Positions 1 to 5,065 of a stretch of DNA of 5,065 nucleotides are shown piece after piece (within the stretch, counting starts at the first letter, position 1; each line of letters opens with the position of its first letter). The notes below the pieces were generated by a model. The model had not been told where the DNA came from, ran no database searches, and saw nothing but the letters and a program-made list of their open reading frames with translations. This DNA comes from a virus (taxonomy: Duplodnaviria > Heunggongvirae > Uroviricota > Caudoviricetes), in IMG/VR virus record IMGVR_UViG_2693429605_000002; one strand, 5' to 3'. A program made the position numbers and the translations under genes.

Positions 1-2390
1 CCACCATAAACATCACCTTGATTGGTAAGCAGCAGGTAAGTTTTAGCGCCATCATTACGCCATAATGCCCCATACTCCCCACCTATCATTCGAATCTGAT
101 TACCACCACGCGCTACAATTTCGTCTGTGGCAAAAAGTTTTTTGCACGACAAGTTATCGTTAACGATTAACGAATGAGACTCATAAAAACCACGCCCACT
201 CTTAAAATCAAGGATAACGTCCGCCGCGATACATTCAGTCGCCGGATTTGTTGCCCCAAACTTATAGGTCGTATCATTAACAACGAGATCAGCACCAGGT
301 GCGGATATTGACAGGCCATCTTCGATAAACGCAAAAACAGGGAAAGCAGCGCCATCAACATAGAACACAGAGCGCAAATCATCGCCCTTATTACTCATCA
401 TTATTGAGTGGATGGCTCGTTCATTGTTTTGATATTGCCAGAACATTCCATAAGCATAACGCCCCCTGTCAGTCCAGCCACCAGGCATAACAAATCCGTT
501 AAACTCGCAGTTATTCATCGGATCGCCTGCGGTTCGCGTTGCCGTGGTGATAATGACCCTTGATGCCAGTTCGCTTACTGAGCCAGCAGAACGCATAACA
601 ACAACAGGGTAATATTTTCCAGATGTTGCACCTGCAGGAGCGTTAACCCGCACATAACGCATACCACGCTTATCAGCAAAGTCTGTTTTACTGACCGCGT
701 TAATGTTGTTCAGGAAGCGTCCCTTATCGGGTATATCAGCGCCGTTCTGGTCTTTCTGCAGACGTTTCTCTGCATTGTTATAGGCTGATTTTACTGCCTT
801 TGGCGTTGCCGCCAGCGTTTCAGACGTGCTGTTGGTCGCGCTGCTTAGCTGGATTATCCCTTTCTGTGCTGTCGTTGCATCCTGTGCGGTGTATTTCCCG
901 TTAGCCAGGTCATACGCGGCCTTAACGGCTTTTGGCGTTGCCGCCAGTGACTCGGAAGTGCTGTTGGTCGCACTGCTGAGCTGTACTATCCCCTTTTTCG
1001 TCGTGCTCGCATCCTCAAGCGCCACGGCGGATGCAATATCCTCTGCCCGTTTTGCCGCTGTCTCAGCGCGCGTTGCCGCGGATTCCGCCGTACTTTTGCT
1101 CTGAGCTGCTGCCGTCGCACTGCCAGCTGCCTCTGTCGCCTTCGTGGATGCCGTCGTGGCGCTACCCTTCGCTGCTGACGCCTGTCTGGTCGCTTCATCT
1201 TTTGAAGCAGACGCAGATGATGCCGATGACGACGCCGAACTGGCTGACGATGCGGCAGCCGTTTTTGAGGATTCTGCGCTGGTTTCCGACGCTTTCGCGT
1301 TCGTTTCGGATGTCTTCGCTGCGGAAGCAGACCTCGCTGCTGCGCTGGCCTGTTCAGTGGCTTCGCCAGCCTTCGTTGTGGCTGTTGAAGCAGACGATGC
1401 GGCGCTTTCTGCCGATTTTCCGGCGGCGCTAGCACTGGCTGAGGCCTGCCCGGCACTTGTTGACGCTGCACTGGCAGACGACGCAGCCGCTGTTTTTGAG
1501 CCTGCCGCAGCCGAGGCGCTCTGTCCCGCTGCCGTTTCAGAAGACCTGGCGTTCGTCTCTGACGTTTTTGCCGCCTTCGCGGAATTTCCTGCCGCTGTTG
1601 CCGAGGAAGCTGCGCTACTGGCGCTCGAGGATGCGTTCGTTTCTGATGATTTTGCCGCCTCTTTTGAAGCCGCCGCATCCCGGGCTGAGGTGGCAGCTTC
1701 TGACGCTTTCGTAGTCGCGGTGGATGCAGAAGTGGCTGCTGATTGTTGTGACGCTGCAGCATTAGTTTCTGACGTTTTTGCGGCACTGGCACTGGTAGCT
1801 GCCGCGCTTTTTGAGGACTCTGCAGCGGCAGCACTTTTTGATGCTTCAGTGGCCTTTGTTGATGCCGTTCCTGCGCTGGAAGTCGCTGACTGAGCCGACG
1901 ACGCGGCCTGTCCGGCTGACGTGCTGGCTGCGCGTGCTGAGCCTGCAGCATCAGTCGCATGGGTTGCCGCCTCACGGGCTGATGTGCTGGCATCACTGGC
2001 TGACTTCTTCGCGGCTGCCGTGTTCTGTGCCACCACGGACGCGTTACGCGCCACCTCTTCCACCATCAGCTCAAAACGGCGCAGTGCCTCCGGACGGGCA
2101 TCATCCTCCGTCATGGCACCGAGAAAATCATTCAGCGTACCGGGTCGGGAATCTTCATACACTGTGATGGTCCCGGCATGTGACGGCGGGAATCCTTCCA
2201 CCAACAGAATAACGCTGTACTGACCGTACTCAACGTCCATACTGTAACGCCCGGCTTCATCCGGATTTTCAGATGCCAGCGTGTTCACCACCACCGTGGT
2301 ACTGTTACGTTTTGCTTTCAGCTGGATTGTGCAGTTCTGTACCGGTTTTCCTGTGCCGTCTTTCAGTACACCTGAAATCTTTACTGCCAT
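1..2390 (-). CDS. stf: Side tail fibre protein Stf, N-terminal 796 codons; 3' end and stop lie beyond the window start
   Basis: Not in the ORF track. Hand translation from ATG (complement of 2388..2390) down to position 3 gives 796 codons with no stop: MAVKISGVLKDGTGKPVQNCTIQLKAKRNSTTVVVNTLASENPDEAGRYSMDVEYGQYSVILLVEGFPPSHAGTITVYEDSRPGTLNDFLGAMTEDDARPEALRRFELMVEEVARNASVVAQ..., then an Ala/Ser/Thr-rich region, two GI(V/I)QLSSATNSTSE(S/T)LAATPKAVK fibre-repeat motifs, and a distal region ending ...GGEYGALWRNDGAKTYLLLTNQGDVYGG at the window edge. The first ~110 residues match lambda Stf as I remember it almost residue for residue. A GGGGTGA Shine-Dalgarno sits 2 nt upstream of the ATG. Confidence 0.88.
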   Translation of the reverse strand, partial: MAVKISGVLKDGTGKPVQNCTIQLKAKRNSTTVVVNTLASENPDEAGRYSMDVEYGQYSVILLVEGFPPSHAGTITVYEDSRPGTLNDFLGAMTEDDARPEALRRFELMVEEVARNASVVAQNTAAAKKSASDASTSAREAATHATDAAGSARAASTSAGQAASSAQSATSSAGTASTKATEASKSAAAAESSKSAAATSASAAKTSETNAAASQQSAATSASTATTKASEAATSARDAAASKEAAKSSETNASSSASSAASSATAAGNSAKAAKTSETNARSSETAAGQSASAAAGSKTAAASSASAASTSAGQASASASAAGKSAESAASSASTATTKAGEATEQASAAARSASAAKTSETNAKASETSAESSKTAAASSASSASSSASSASASKDEATRQASAAKGSATTASTKATEAAGSATAAAQSKSTAESAATRAETAAKRAEDIASAVALEDASTTKKGIVQLSSATNSTSESLAATPKAVKAAYDLANGKYTAQDATTAQKGIIQLSSATNSTSETLAATPKAVKSAYNNAEKRLQKDQNGADIPDKGRFLNNINAVSKTDFADKRGMRYVRVNAPAGATSGKYYPVVVMRSAGSVSELASRVIITTATRTAGDPMNNCEFNGFVMPGGWTDRGRYAYGMFWQYQNNERAIHSIMMSNKGDDLRSVFYVDGAAFPVFAFIEDGLSISAPGADLVVNDTTYKFGATNPATECIAADVILDFKSGRGFYESHSLIVNDNLSCKKLFATDEIVARGGNQIRMIGGEYGALWRNDGAKTYLLLTNQGDVYG
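780..998 (-). repeat. Two copies of the conserved phage tail-fibre repeat motif within stf, 135 bp apart
   Basis: Copy A (998..912) encodes KKGIVQLSSATNSTSESLAATPKAVKAAY; copy B (863..780) encodes KGIIQLSSATNSTSETLAATPKAVKSAY. The DNA copies differ mainly at synonymous third positions. I recall this motif as a widely shared tail-fibre repeat found in lambda Stf and related fibres. Confidence 0.7.
1020..2030 (-). repeat. Ala/Ser/Thr-rich low-complexity, internally repetitive coding region of stf (fibre shaft)
   Basis: About 340 codons dominated by GCN/TCN/ACN codons. The motif (A/K)K(T/S)SETNA recurs four times (coding on minus strand near 1779, 1653, 1569 and 1319), with related SAA/ASS/TKA(T/S)EA blocks between. 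The composition is so biased that other frames and the antisense strand also stay open here (track ORFs 1144..1893 + and 986..1996 -). Confidence 0.65.
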
Positions 2391-2392
2391 AT

Positions 2393-2399
2393 TCACCCC
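2393..2399 (-). promoter_or_regulatory. Shine-Dalgarno sequence of stf
   Basis: Minus strand reads GGGGTGA (complement of 2393..2399), then AT, then ATG at 2390. The spacer is short, so this is tentative. Confidence 0.45.
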
Positions 2400-2401
2400 A
2401 C

Positions 2402-2428
2402 AAAAAAGCCCGCCTGAACCCGCGGGCT
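2402..2428 (-). terminator. Putative intrinsic (Rho-independent) terminator downstream of lom, immediately upstream of stf
   Basis: Plus strand 2407..2413 agcccgc pairs with 2422..2428 gcgggct (7-bp stem, 8-nt loop ctgaaccc). On the minus strand the hairpin is followed by a T-run (complement of the A-run at 2402..2407) that leads straight into the stf Shine-Dalgarno. It lies 27 nt downstream of the lom stop. Confidence 0.6.
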
Positions 2429-2454
2429 GTCATAACACTGTGTTACCTGGCTAA

Positions 2455-3054
2455 TCAGAACTTATAACCAACAGCCACGATGAACCCGTCAGTGCGCCAG
2501 TCACCACTGCCGGAGCCTTCATAAGCGACATCAATGGCCACGGATTCGGTCGGGTTAAACTGCACGCCAGCTCCCCACGCCAGAGACGTGTTGCTGTGGC
2601 GACCGTCATCACTTCCGGTCAGCACATCGTGCTTTTTCCCCTTGTTGTCAGTTACGCGGAGATAATCCCCGGAGAAAGTCGACACACGGCTGTAAGCCAT
2701 ACCCGCCATCGCATACGCGCTGAACCATTCATTCACGCGCACAGACGGCCCCGCCATCACGCTGAACCAGCGATTACGCACGGAATCCTCATGCCAGCGG
2801 GTATCGCTGTAATGCGTTTTTTGCTCATCTTCAGCGTTGGCATAACTGAATGACGTAATCAGCCCCAGCGTGTCCGTAAACTCATAACGGTATTTCACGT
2901 TAATCCCGTTCAGTTCATCGCTGCCAGGAACGTTCGTCGAGACATGAAGATACCCCGCGCTCAGCGTTGACTGATGTTCAGACGCCCATGCAGGCGCACC
3001 GGATACGGCCAGACAAATGGCTGCGGACAAAATGGCGGCATAAAGTTTACGCAT
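2455..3054 (-). CDS. lom: Lom outer-membrane protein, Ail/Lom/PagC/OmpX-family small beta-barrel (199 aa), lysogenic-conversion moron
   Basis: Complete ORF in the track. ATG is the complement of 3052..3054 and is preceded by a GAGAGG Shine-Dalgarno; stop TGA is the complement of 2455..2457. N-terminus MRKLYAAILSAAICLAVSGAPAWA has the n/h/c layout of a Sec signal peptide with an AxA cleavage site. The C-terminus ...YEGSGSGDWRTDGFIVAVGYKF ends in Phe, the typical outer-membrane beta-barrel signal, and closely matches the lambda Lom C-terminus as I remember it. Alternating aromatic/hydrophobic residues fit an 8-strand barrel. Position between J and stf is as in lambda. Confidence 0.92.
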   Translation of the reverse strand: MRKLYAAILSAAICLAVSGAPAWASEHQSTLSAGYLHVSTNVPGSDELNGINVKYRYEFTDTLGLITSFSYANAEDEQKTHYSDTRWHEDSVRNRWFSVMAGPSVRVNEWFSAYAMAGMAYSRVSTFSGDYLRVTDNKGKKHDVLTGSDDGRHSNTSLAWGAGVQFNPTESVAIDVAYEGSGSGDWRTDGFIVAVGYKF

Positions 3055-3058
3055 AATT

Positions 3059-3065
3059 ACCTCTC
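3059..3065 (-). promoter_or_regulatory. Shine-Dalgarno sequence of lom
   Basis: Minus strand reads GAGAGGT (complement of 3059..3065) followed by the 4-nt spacer AATT and then ATG at 3054. Confidence 0.5.
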
Positions 3066-3075
3066 GCTTTTCTGC

Positions 3076-3102
3076 AATAAAAAAGGCGCCATTTCTGGCG
3101 CC
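3076..3102 (-). terminator. Putative intrinsic (Rho-independent) terminator between J and lom
   Basis: Plus strand 3085..3091 ggcgcca pairs with 3096..3102 tggcgcc (7-bp stem, 6 GC pairs, 4-nt loop tttc). On the minus strand the hairpin is followed directly by TTTTTTATT (complement of 3076..3084). It lies 20 nt downstream of the J stop and upstream of the lom RBS. No T-tract follows on the plus strand, so it is unidirectional. Confidence 0.6.
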
Positions 3103-3121
3103 CGTATATGGGTTATAAAAT

Positions 3122-5065
3122 TCAGCTGATACTGATGCCTGCGGTGGCTTTCTTCATCACCACAACCAGCAAATCGCTGATACTTGCTGTGGGATACCAG
3201 TTATTCACCAGCCATGCTGATACCGAAAACTCCAGCGTCATGTGACCGTGACCGGCAGGCATATCAATAACGCCACTGTAAATCAGCGTATTATCCAGCG
3301 CGGTACGGTTATAAATTTCAGCACCGTTTTTCCGCACTATCAGACGGCATGAGGAGTAAATATCAGTATGCTCTCTCTCATGCTTAGCGCCACTGAATGC
3401 CACCGCCGGAATAACAATCTGCCGGTCAAACGGCTGATCGTCATAAACCCTGACGGTAATGGTCCCTGATGGCCACCGCTCCGGTGCACGGGAGTCACGG
3501 GGGAAAGCTTTGCCCACTGTTTTAACGAGATCGCCTTCAATCTGGTTCGCGGACAGTTTTCCCAGAACCCGGCAGTTCTCGTTAATCGTGACGTTGTTGA
3601 GCGTCCCGGAGTTCGCATTCACGTTACCGCTAATATCGGCATTTTTCGCCGTCAGCCGCCCGTCCGGTGTCAGGGAAAATGCCGGAGGATTACCGCCGCT
3701 GGTAATGGTGGGAGCCGTCAGATATTTCAGGAACACGTCGTTCATGAATATCTGATCGCCCTGACCAACAAACATCGGCTTTGTGTTGCCATTCGCAGGA
3801 TTAATCATCGCAATCCTGTCCGCCGCCAGCAGCACCTGACTCTGCATACCGTCAGGGGTATTCTCAATACCGGCACCAATACCCGCGATATAAAGGCGTC
3901 CGTCCTGCATCTGCTGCAGCTTCACAGCCCACATGCTGTTCAGGTTATTATTTGTATCAACCTGAACCTTCTGTATCTGCTGGATCGCTGCACTCTGGTC
4001 TTCCAGTTTCTTATTGACGGTCTGCGTGATTTCATTACTGACATCCGTGATGGACGTTCTGATTTCCGCCAGGTCAGGCGCAAGCTGACCGTTATCAATC
4101 TGAGTCCACAACTCCTGAGCCAGATGGGTTTTCCCTATCTCTCCTTTGAAAAAATCCAGATAGCCGGATGCATCATCACTCGGCTGGCCAACAGCCTCCA
4201 CAAATGCCGATTTGCCAACGGTGTTCACACTGCGGATATAAAAGTAATAATCATGGCCCGGTTTGATATTGATACTGGCGGCTATCCAGTACAGCCCCGT
4301 GCCAAGGTAGCGGGCTGTGGTTTCAACCTGCCTGATATCGGTAATCCGCGTTTCCGAAAACCAGAACTCAAACTGTACCGTCGGGTCATACACCGCAAGA
4401 CGCGGGACCGCTGTTATCTGAAAATAGCCCGGTGTCAGCTCAATCTGTGACGGCGCTGCCGGTGCGGCAATCAGGAACGATACCGACGCCGGATCGCCCT
4501 GCTGTCCCCGGGCATTTACCGCCCGGACTGTCAGCGTGTAACGCCCCAGCGCCAGTTGTGTGAAGCGGTATGTGGTTTCTGCCGTCCGGGCTGTGCTGAC
4601 CAGCCGCTCACTGCCGTCATCCGCTGCCACGGTCAGGCGAAGCATGAAACTCACGCCCTTCACCACCTTCGGCGTGTCCCATCGCGCCAGCACCTGATAT
4701 TCCCCGCTGTCTGCGGTGACTTCGGCAGTCAGGTGCTGCACTGCTGGCGGCGTGACACCATTCACCGTGCCGCTCTGGTCGCCGTCAAAGTGCGCCCCGT
4801 TATCCACGATGGCTTCTTTTTCCGGTACATGCTGCACGGCGGTGATGGCATACGTGCCGTCGTCGTTCTCACGGATACTCACGCAGCGGAACAGGCGCTG
4901 GCGCAGCGTCGGCAGCTTCAGCCCCCACACGCTGTATCCGGCAACGCCGTCAGGAACACGGCTCACTTTTACCTTCACGCCGTCGGTGACGGACTGGACC
5001 TCCACGCTGACCGGATTGCCACTTCCGTCAACCAGGCTTATCAGCGTGGTACCGGAGGATGGCAG
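3122..5065 (-). CDS. J: Host-specificity / tail-tip attachment protein J, C-terminal part (647 codons plus stop); 5' end lies beyond the window end
   Basis: ORF track gives 3122..5005 (627 aa) beginning at an internal GTG. Hand translation of 5065..5006 in the same frame reads [20 protein letters not shown] with no stop, so the gene continues upstream out of the window. Stop codon TGA is the complement of 3122..3124. Identification rests on position (directly upstream of lom and stf, 67-bp gap to lom), large size, and beta-rich composition with segments resembling fibronectin-III-like repeats (e.g. [32 protein letters not shown]); no database search was possible. Confidence 0.88.

Follow-up and report, generated by a model that had tools for sequence, protein, structure and literature searches.

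The data favor a model in which lom, the gene under study, is a promoterless passenger of the phage late operon that carries its own 3′ terminator, and in which its product may mask the phage receptor, by analogy with lambda Lom; we assign this joint reading a probability of roughly 0.7. According to this model, the lom gene of the window (the whole stretch of 5,065 nucleotides of phage DNA that was analyzed) would be transcribed mainly on a late tail transcript of the pR′-type, Q-antiterminated, which would read through both of the hairpins that flank the gene. When antitermination is absent, the two hairpins would insulate lom, and for that reason its expression in lysogens would be expected to be low or leaky. 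The model fits the expression pattern described for Lom, which is stated, in a passage citing ribosome profiling, to rise sharply late in infection (preprint 10.1101/2025.02.28.640651). Once in the outer membrane, Lom may adjoin the receptor of the phage and thereby prevent phages of the same kind from adsorbing. Such masking would spare progeny a dead-end adsorption to infected cells or debris and may also protect lysogens, while the long variable hairpins L1 to L3 would set its specificity. Lom may, in addition, promote adhesion to host cells.

Identity and setting of lom

The feature is an ordinary lom allele of a lambda-like E. coli prophage, located between J and stf. An intact ORF of 199 aa with an ATG start occupies 2455..3054 on the minus strand, and its product matches the Pfam family Ail_Lom (PF06316) over residues 1–199 of 199 (E = 7e-125; 414.7 bits, with a cut-off of 23) as well as PHROG 108, “Lom outer membrane protein,” at 3e-109. 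The coordinates and the family match confirm the preliminary description of this DNA, which had placed an Ail/Lom-type outer-membrane protein at 2455-3054, and the same assignment upholds its view that Lom is not a component of the virion. All genes of the window, namely J, lom, and stf, are carried by the minus strand. On the upstream side lies the 3′ part of the tail-tip gene J (3122..5065, minus strand, running off the window), recognized by the Pfam domains Ig_J, Ig_J_second, Phage_Tail_Tip, and Ig_GpJ_C, and on the downstream side lies the 5′ part of the side tail fiber gene stf (1..2390, minus strand, likewise running off the window), recognized from its translation. The first 94 aa of the stf product match PDB 9e7m, “Tail fiber protein” (1e-51), and E. 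coli genomes annotate the gene as “prophage tail fiber N-terminal domain-containing protein.” Two sub-threshold Rfam matches to isrG, on the opposite strand inside stf, are irrelevant to lom. With J ending at 3122 and stf starting at 2390, lom is situated inside the tail operon, as had been proposed, and the J-lom and lom-stf intergenic gaps measure 64–67 nt. The J product is about 95% identical to lambda J at the amino acid level in its upstream part, but only 42% identical in its last 130 aa; its receptor-binding domain, which comprises the last ~150 aa, is closer to PDB 9wca, “A8 gpJ,” than to lambda.

Prophage regions 97% identical to the whole window are found in many E. coli chromosomes, where the three genes are annotated as gpJ, “Ail/Lom family outer membrane beta-barrel protein,” and tail fiber protein, and Stx-converting and other lambdoid phages are 93–96% identical to the window. 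Relatives in the Lom cluster number tens of thousands in the databases and are of full length. The presence of lom at the J-stf position is already known from the annotation of thousands of E. coli prophages; as a gene call, the lom described here adds nothing new.

The lom product is predicted to comprise a signal peptide (residues 1–24) and a mature 175-aa barrel of eight strands. Its N-terminus is of the Sec type, with MRK followed by a hydrophobic core of 16 residues (mean Kyte-Doolittle 2.05) and by a cleavage site between APAWA and SEHQ; a lipobox is absent, as Ile precedes Cys14, and the C-terminus reads VGYKF, with an aromatic last residue. An AF2 model based on 20 relatives combines the signal helix with eight strands, the beta3-beta4 and beta5-beta6 hairpins being long, at a mean pLDDT of only 62, and its best Foldseek matches are OmpX (1qj9) and Ail (3qrc), both with a probability of 1.00 and a target-normalized TM of 0.70–0.71. 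A predicted signal peptide and a predicted barrel, both of which had been named as checks on the assignment, were thus found, the former in the N-terminal sequence and the latter by AF2 and Foldseek. By sequence, the PDB matches of Lom are lambda Lom (9e-48), OmpX (1.5e-17), and Ail (9e-17). OmpX of E. coli, Ail of Yersinia, and Rck and PagC of Salmonella likewise possess an eight-stranded barrel, a signal peptide, and a C-terminal Phe. However, the window Lom is only ~30% identical to the members of this group, its L2 and L3 hairpins are much longer than those of the OmpX/Ail group, by about 25 extra residues, and, unlike these proteins, it is phage-borne within a tail operon. The scores obtained with the NCBIfam equivalog models lie below their cut-offs for Rck (NF011777; 109 bits vs. 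258) and for OmpX (NF006917; 96 bits vs. 176). On these sequence comparisons, the protein is a Lom and not an ortholog of OmpX, Rck, or Ail.

The lom unit, its hairpins, and its expression

The extent of the lom unit can be drawn from prophages in which J and stf are joined without it. A 220-nt query, consisting of the last 110 nt of J and the first 110 nt of stf, was compared with 5426 complete E. coli genomes, and a lom-less J-stf junction was found in 31 of them, with J and stf 58 nt apart. In lom-less E. coli RM11911 (locus L209), homology to the window covers 4731..3076, breaks off, and starts again at 2407, within the T run that precedes stf. This delimits a presence/absence unit of ~668 nt (2408..3075, minus strand), which consists of a 21-nt leader with the Shine-Dalgarno sequence, the lom ORF, a 3′ spacer, and the stem of the putative lom terminator. 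The comparison shows that, of the two putative terminator hairpins, only the downstream one belongs to the lom unit, whereas the upstream one is that of J, with or without lom; L209 keeps it as GGGTGCC-AGAAAT-GGCACC, another compensatory variant, followed by TTTTTTATT. The earlier picture of a gene flanked by terminators is therefore retained in part: a hairpin lies on each side of lom, but the upstream one is J's own and is kept in lom-less prophages. The borders of the unit coincide with the two T runs and carry 1–2 nt of microhomology, so that insertion and deletion are not distinguishable from them. As lom is near-universal between J and stf and the 31 lom-less sites look like a single lineage, deletion is at least as likely. 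Among 209 phage records matching the split J-stf query, a lom-less junction was absent; mEp460 and Kati, which match only the stf half of the query, carry lom. In HK97, J is followed by stf without lom, and this phage was rejected as an empty site from which to draw the borders, its junction having no DNA homology.

The upstream hairpin, assigned here to J (3076..3103, minus strand), has the form GGGCGCCA-GAAA-TGGCGCCT (3103..3084) and is followed by the U run TTTTTTATT (3084..3076, with T3084 shared with the 3′ arm). It forms 8 pairs with an energy of -15.2 to -15.7 kcal/mol (z = -2.95; 1 of 200 shuffles was as good), and its stem covaries among close relatives, with G-C to A-U and C-G to U-A swaps at two pairs. 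In the alignment of this stem, 94.6% of cells are paired, compared with 41–69% when the partner is slid, and three pairs are changed on both sides (9 cells vs. 2.4 ± 1.2 in shuffled data, with 0 of 500 shuffles reaching the score). Other hairpins with a U run hold the same site in lambda, in a Citrobacter prophage, at loci L091 and L093, and in the lom-less L209. The downstream hairpin, that of lom (2402..2428, minus strand), has the form AGCCCGC-GGGTTCAG-GCGGGCT (2428..2407) and leads into a T run (2407..2402, with T2407 shared with the stem). It forms 7 pairs, with -14.9 kcal/mol when folded alone and TTTTTT following, while in its 66-nt context the energy is unexceptional (z = -1.1). This hairpin is mostly invariant and occurs in lambda and about 90 relatives; being mostly invariant, its stem has weaker support from covariation. 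An alternative 3′ flank (loci L052, L089, and others) brings a different hairpin and T run after lom. The window has nine terminator-like sites, no excess over shuffled sequence (5.5 ± 2.5), and their number is therefore no evidence in itself; the best two of these sites sit in the two intergenic gaps, on the coding strand. Both hairpins are credible as putative intrinsic terminators, and we take them to be equivalent to the t′J terminators of lambda.

Immediately within the unit, the Shine-Dalgarno sequence GAGAGGT (3059..3065, minus strand) is located 4 nt ahead of the lom ATG, and its AGAGGT is invariant across 16 diverse alleles, including those of lambda and Citrobacter, which bears out the claim that lom has a strong Shine-Dalgarno of its own. 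A strict sigma70 scan of the window returned no site on the lom strand, and a PWM scan of 3700..3040 (661 nt to the ATG) gave a best score of 6.1 bits, against shuffle maxima of 8.6 ± 1.8; the two scans agree with the preliminary description that no convincing sigma70 promoter is to be seen. The TATAAC element mentioned in it is indeed weak, reaching about 0 bits with its best -35 and spacer, but lies at 3117..3112 (3112..3117, minus strand) and not at 3116..3111; the element is conserved among E. coli alleles and absent in lambda and Citrobacter. A candidate promoter composed of TTTATT (3081..3076), a 17-nt spacer, and AATTAT (3058..3053) scored 5.3 bits and was rejected, as transcription would start at or inside the ATG. 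With just 21 nt between its border and the ATG, the unit would bring no promoter with it. The scans and the borders together show a lom unit without a detectable promoter, and a non-consensus or activator-dependent promoter is possible. In composition, lom equals the tail genes (GC of 0.548 for lom, 0.552 for J, and 0.545 for stf; GC3 of 0.608 for lom and 0.635 for J).

These results bear on the status of lom as a moron, a term that reviews apply to lambda lom (PMC3594210). In the definition of Juhala et al. (2000; also Cumby et al., 2012), as relayed in PMC3594210, a moron is extra DNA with its own promoter, its own terminator, and a deviant composition. Two of these four features are found here, in that lom is extra DNA at a syntenic position and has its own putative downstream terminator, while a promoter of its own was found neither in the scans nor in the 21-nt leader, and a base composition unlike that of its neighbors was not observed. 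The “standard moron layout” initially ascribed to lom is accordingly not borne out, as no promoter is seen, the GC content is native, and the upstream hairpin is J's own. The morons of HK97 and HK022 (Juhala et al., 2000) are likewise extra genes amid tail genes, with their own terminator and missing in some relatives; unlike them, lom has neither its own promoter nor a compositional difference.

It is possible, if unlikely, that lom is a moron in the classic sense, that is, an autonomous unit with its own weak or non-consensus promoter, expressed in the repressed prophage, ended by its own terminator, and selected for lysogenic conversion of the host, through adhesion to epithelial cells or through serum resistance as with Ail, Rck, and PagC. 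Lambda lom is reported to be expressed in lysogens (PMC7067206; PMC1151598), and it is listed as lysogen-expressed and as encoding a moron product that improves adhesion (PMC7067206; PMC3594210; PMC1151598), while the lom homolog of Phi24B is expressed equally in lysogens and in induced cells, its expression thus being uncoupled from induction (PMC3342100). Reported lysogenic expression of this kind is the main argument for a cryptic promoter missed by consensus scans. In addition, the position of the downstream terminator within the lom unit, the J-stf arrangement of HK97 without lom, and the homology of Lom to Ail and OmpX all favor an autonomous moron. However, no promoter above chance lies upstream of lom, where the leader has only 21 nt and is immediately preceded by a conserved, covarying terminator, and the gene has no GC deviation. 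Further, lom was undetected in one lysogen array study, and the scores of Lom with the NCBIfam models of Rck and OmpX fall short of the cut-offs. The view that Lom acts in adhesion or serum resistance draws on one lambda study, which concerned another allele, and on homology with Ail and Rck.

The conservation described above also bears on whether lom is maintained at all. A scenario in which lom is a decaying, functionless remnant, kept by its linkage to J and stf in prophages that are often defective, would accommodate the frameshifted copies at loci L090 and L111, the IS insertions in or beside the gene at L028 and L020, and the existence of a lom-less lineage. However, the ORF is intact here, and the tens of thousands of database members are of full length; conservation, with compensatory changes, is seen in the membrane strands, the Shine-Dalgarno sequence, and both hairpins; the plaque-forming phages mEp460 and Kati carry lom; and lambda Lom has a measurable phenotype. 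Decay is thus regarded as highly improbable, and lom looks like a passenger of the late operon, furnished with its own 3′ terminator.

Divergence from lambda Lom and possible receptor masking

Lambda Lom occupies the same J-stf position and is of the same family and fold, and the layout of lambda lom is alike, with a hairpin and U run, a GAGAGGT Shine-Dalgarno, the ORF, and a second hairpin and U run. The window Lom and lambda Lom (NP_040601; PDB 9wso chain C) are 45% identical overall, with 38% identity in the part preceding residue 158 and 76% in the part that follows, in agreement with the earlier observation that the N-terminal two-thirds had diverged from lambda Lom. When residues are classed by the AF2 topology (mean pLDDT 62), the predicted extracellular parts are 22% identical to lambda Lom, as compared with 58% for the membrane strands of the N-terminal part and 76% for those of the C-terminal part; this alignment on predicted topology supports the suggestion that the variable part corresponds to the surface loops. 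The apparent conservation of the C-terminal third is largely due to its lack of any long loop. The last 45 aa are near-identical in the two proteins, including the YEGSGSGDWRTDGFIV.VGYKF segment, and the short L4 loop GSGSGD is invariant between them, while loop L1 is 8 aa shorter in the window Lom than in lambda Lom. A pure recombination breakpoint at ~2582 was considered as the source of the N/C asymmetry and was found to account for it only partly, the main effect being that of loops versus strands; in a codon-level comparison with lambda lom, same-codon use differs modestly (50% vs. 67%).

The alleles of lambdoid and Stx phages of E. coli, Shigella, and E. albertii (JLK-2012, mEp460, Kati) encode proteins 92–97% identical to the window Lom, within the same flanks, and differ from it by point differences only; they are annotated as “Ail/Lom family outer membrane beta-barrel protein” or “Lom outer membrane protein.” Across the 99 loci with this Lom type, which encode 77 distinct proteins, the differences again concentrate in L1 (37-47) and in the tip of L2 (72-81). 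Comparison of the alleles delimits a dimorphic block at the predicted tip of the extracellular hairpin L2 (codons 70-80; 2815..2845, minus strand), where the window reads ANAEDEQKTH and the alternative, deeply different allele reads AGDKNRQLT[HR]. Within its 31 nt, this block holds 18 common variant sites, of which 12 are completely linked, while lom genes are otherwise 92–96% identical. In the window copy, the L1 form LHVSTNVPGSDEL is paired with the acidic L2 tip ANAEDEQKTH.

With regard to function, receptor masking appears, by analogy, at least as likely as the classic role in adhesion. In PDB entry 9wso, “Outer membrane protein lom” is accompanied by Maltoporin, the sequence of which is that of LamB in the lambda J-LamB structure 8xcj; this Maltoporin was found with LamB as the query. 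Lambda Lom would accordingly have been solved together with LamB, in a complex whose geometry and meaning we infer. Expression of lambda Lom was reported to provide strong defense against lambda-vir, with a drop in EOP, and not against T7, while OmpX provides none (10.1101/2025.02.28.640651). In HK022, a receptor-blocking gene, cor, annotated as a moron, lies directly behind J. Taken as a whole, the 9wso deposit, the defense against lambda-vir, and the slot occupied by cor favor receptor masking as the most probable function under selection in Lom proteins. Cor of HK022, phi80, and N15 and Llp of T5 resemble Lom in being phage-encoded outer-membrane proteins whose genes lie next to that of a receptor-binding protein. 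Both are superinfection-exclusion proteins, small lipoproteins whose target is FhuA. They block the phage's own outer-membrane receptor, and a comparable action is proposed for Lom; however, they share no sequence or fold relationship with Lom, which is an integral barrel. Masking is documented only for lambda Lom, a protein 45% identical to the window Lom and differing from it most in the surface parts. As the J receptor-binding domain beside the window lom is only 42% identical to that of lambda, the receptor, and hence any partner of Lom, may differ as well. In PADLOC, no model matches the window Lom.

A more specific extension of the masking model would have the Lom hairpins, especially the L2 tip (2845..2815), tuned to the receptor of the neighboring J allele, such that Lom and J form a matched pair for host range and exclusion, with every J type accompanied by a Lom that masks the receptor it uses. 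We consider this unlikely. In a set of 85 non-identical loci, the allele at the L2 tip correlates with the cluster of the J receptor-binding domain (40/6 vs. 9/30; Fisher 2e-9; r2 0.42), an association observed in related, database-sampled sequences, where a mosaic history by blocks could likewise produce it. Most SNPs located physically nearer to J have a weaker association with the J cluster (r2 0.02–0.16). At the level of whole types, the same Lom type (at least 80% N-terminal identity) adjoins at least 9 clusters of J receptor-binding domain, and the idea that each Lom type belongs strictly to one type of J receptor-binding domain, also considered, was not borne out among the major types.

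Significance for lambdoid phages

A promoterless unit that owns only a 3′ terminator explains why a “lom promoter” has not been found, and suggests that lom is mainly a late gene. The hairpin upstream of it is to be read as a conserved, covarying terminator of J within the late operon, independent of lom. Given the deposit of lambda Lom with LamB, the divergent Lom alleles that lie beside divergent J domains would constitute a natural set for tests of receptor-specific masking. The diversity of Lom and J thus bears on superinfection exclusion by prophages and on the engineering of phage host range.

Allelic forms of Lom and the neighbouring J types

Comparison of alleles across the related loci L002-L081 and L184-L208 revealed that the tip of the predicted extracellular loop L2 of Lom (codons 70-80; 2815..2845, minus strand) is dimorphic, occurring either in an acidic form, ANAEDEQKTH, or in a basic form, AGDKNRQLT[HR]. 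A 31-nt stretch contains 18 common variant sites that distinguish the two alleles, and linkage is complete for 12 of these 18. Association of the L2-tip allele with the cluster of the J receptor-binding domain reached an r2 of 0.42, which exceeds that of most SNPs lying nearer to J. A third type of Lom, with 60% identity to lambda Lom, was seen exclusively with J cluster J6. Chimeric Lom proteins of 207 aa were also encountered, and the chimeras and the third type together involve proteins P0080, P0091, P0095, and P0098 and loci L093 and L144-L179; in some of the chimeras, such as P0080, a long lambda-like L1 loop is joined to an otherwise window-like protein.

Among structural entries, lambda Lom and LamB are both present in PDB 9wso, and 9wca and 9wcb contain “A8 gpJ 713.” The last 70 residues of the latter, compared by eye, are apparently the same as those of the representative of the J4 cluster, which adjoins the window-type lom in 13 IMG/VR loci.

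Lambda-identical lom and spurious signals in stf

A lom identical to that of lambda, which matches the query at 45%, was found in low-coverage contigs (L094-L105 and other loci) from assemblies of Neobacillus, Kitasatospora, Pseudomonas, Shewanella, Bradyrhizobium, and others, several of these contigs being about 48.4-48.5 kb in length. Such copies almost certainly represent contamination by phage lambda DNA. Spurious signals were met in stf, where long open reading frames occur out of frame with the gene, one of 336 aa on the minus strand (986..1996) and one of 249 aa on the plus strand (1144..1893), and where Rfam returned two sub-threshold isrG matches on the plus strand, all of which arise because the middle of Stf (window positions about 700..2000) is a long low-complexity region, rich in Ala, Ser, and Thr and of 60% GC.

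Variation between J and lom

The J-lom hairpin carries the loop ATTTCT in place of its reverse complement AGAAAT in L008, L026, L039, L050, and L056, and since the stems are identical, the palindromic element as a whole has been inverted in these loci. Two independent insertions of about 2.47 kb were found nearby, one within the leader of lom, downstream of the J terminator and ahead of the Shine-Dalgarno sequence (L028, about 521..2995), and the other in the final codons of J (L020, about 438..2910); each is flanked by 8-bp target duplications and has ends reading GTAAGCG..., which we take to resemble those of the IS66 family. Frameshifted lom pseudogenes occur in L090 and L111, from E. coli ECMA0423 and Shigella flexneri, with the upstream hairpin and Shine-Dalgarno sequence still intact. 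In HK022 (L083, 4739..4972), the stretch downstream of J contains cor, annotated as a moron and superinfection-exclusion gene, and its location parallels that of lom, likewise downstream of J.
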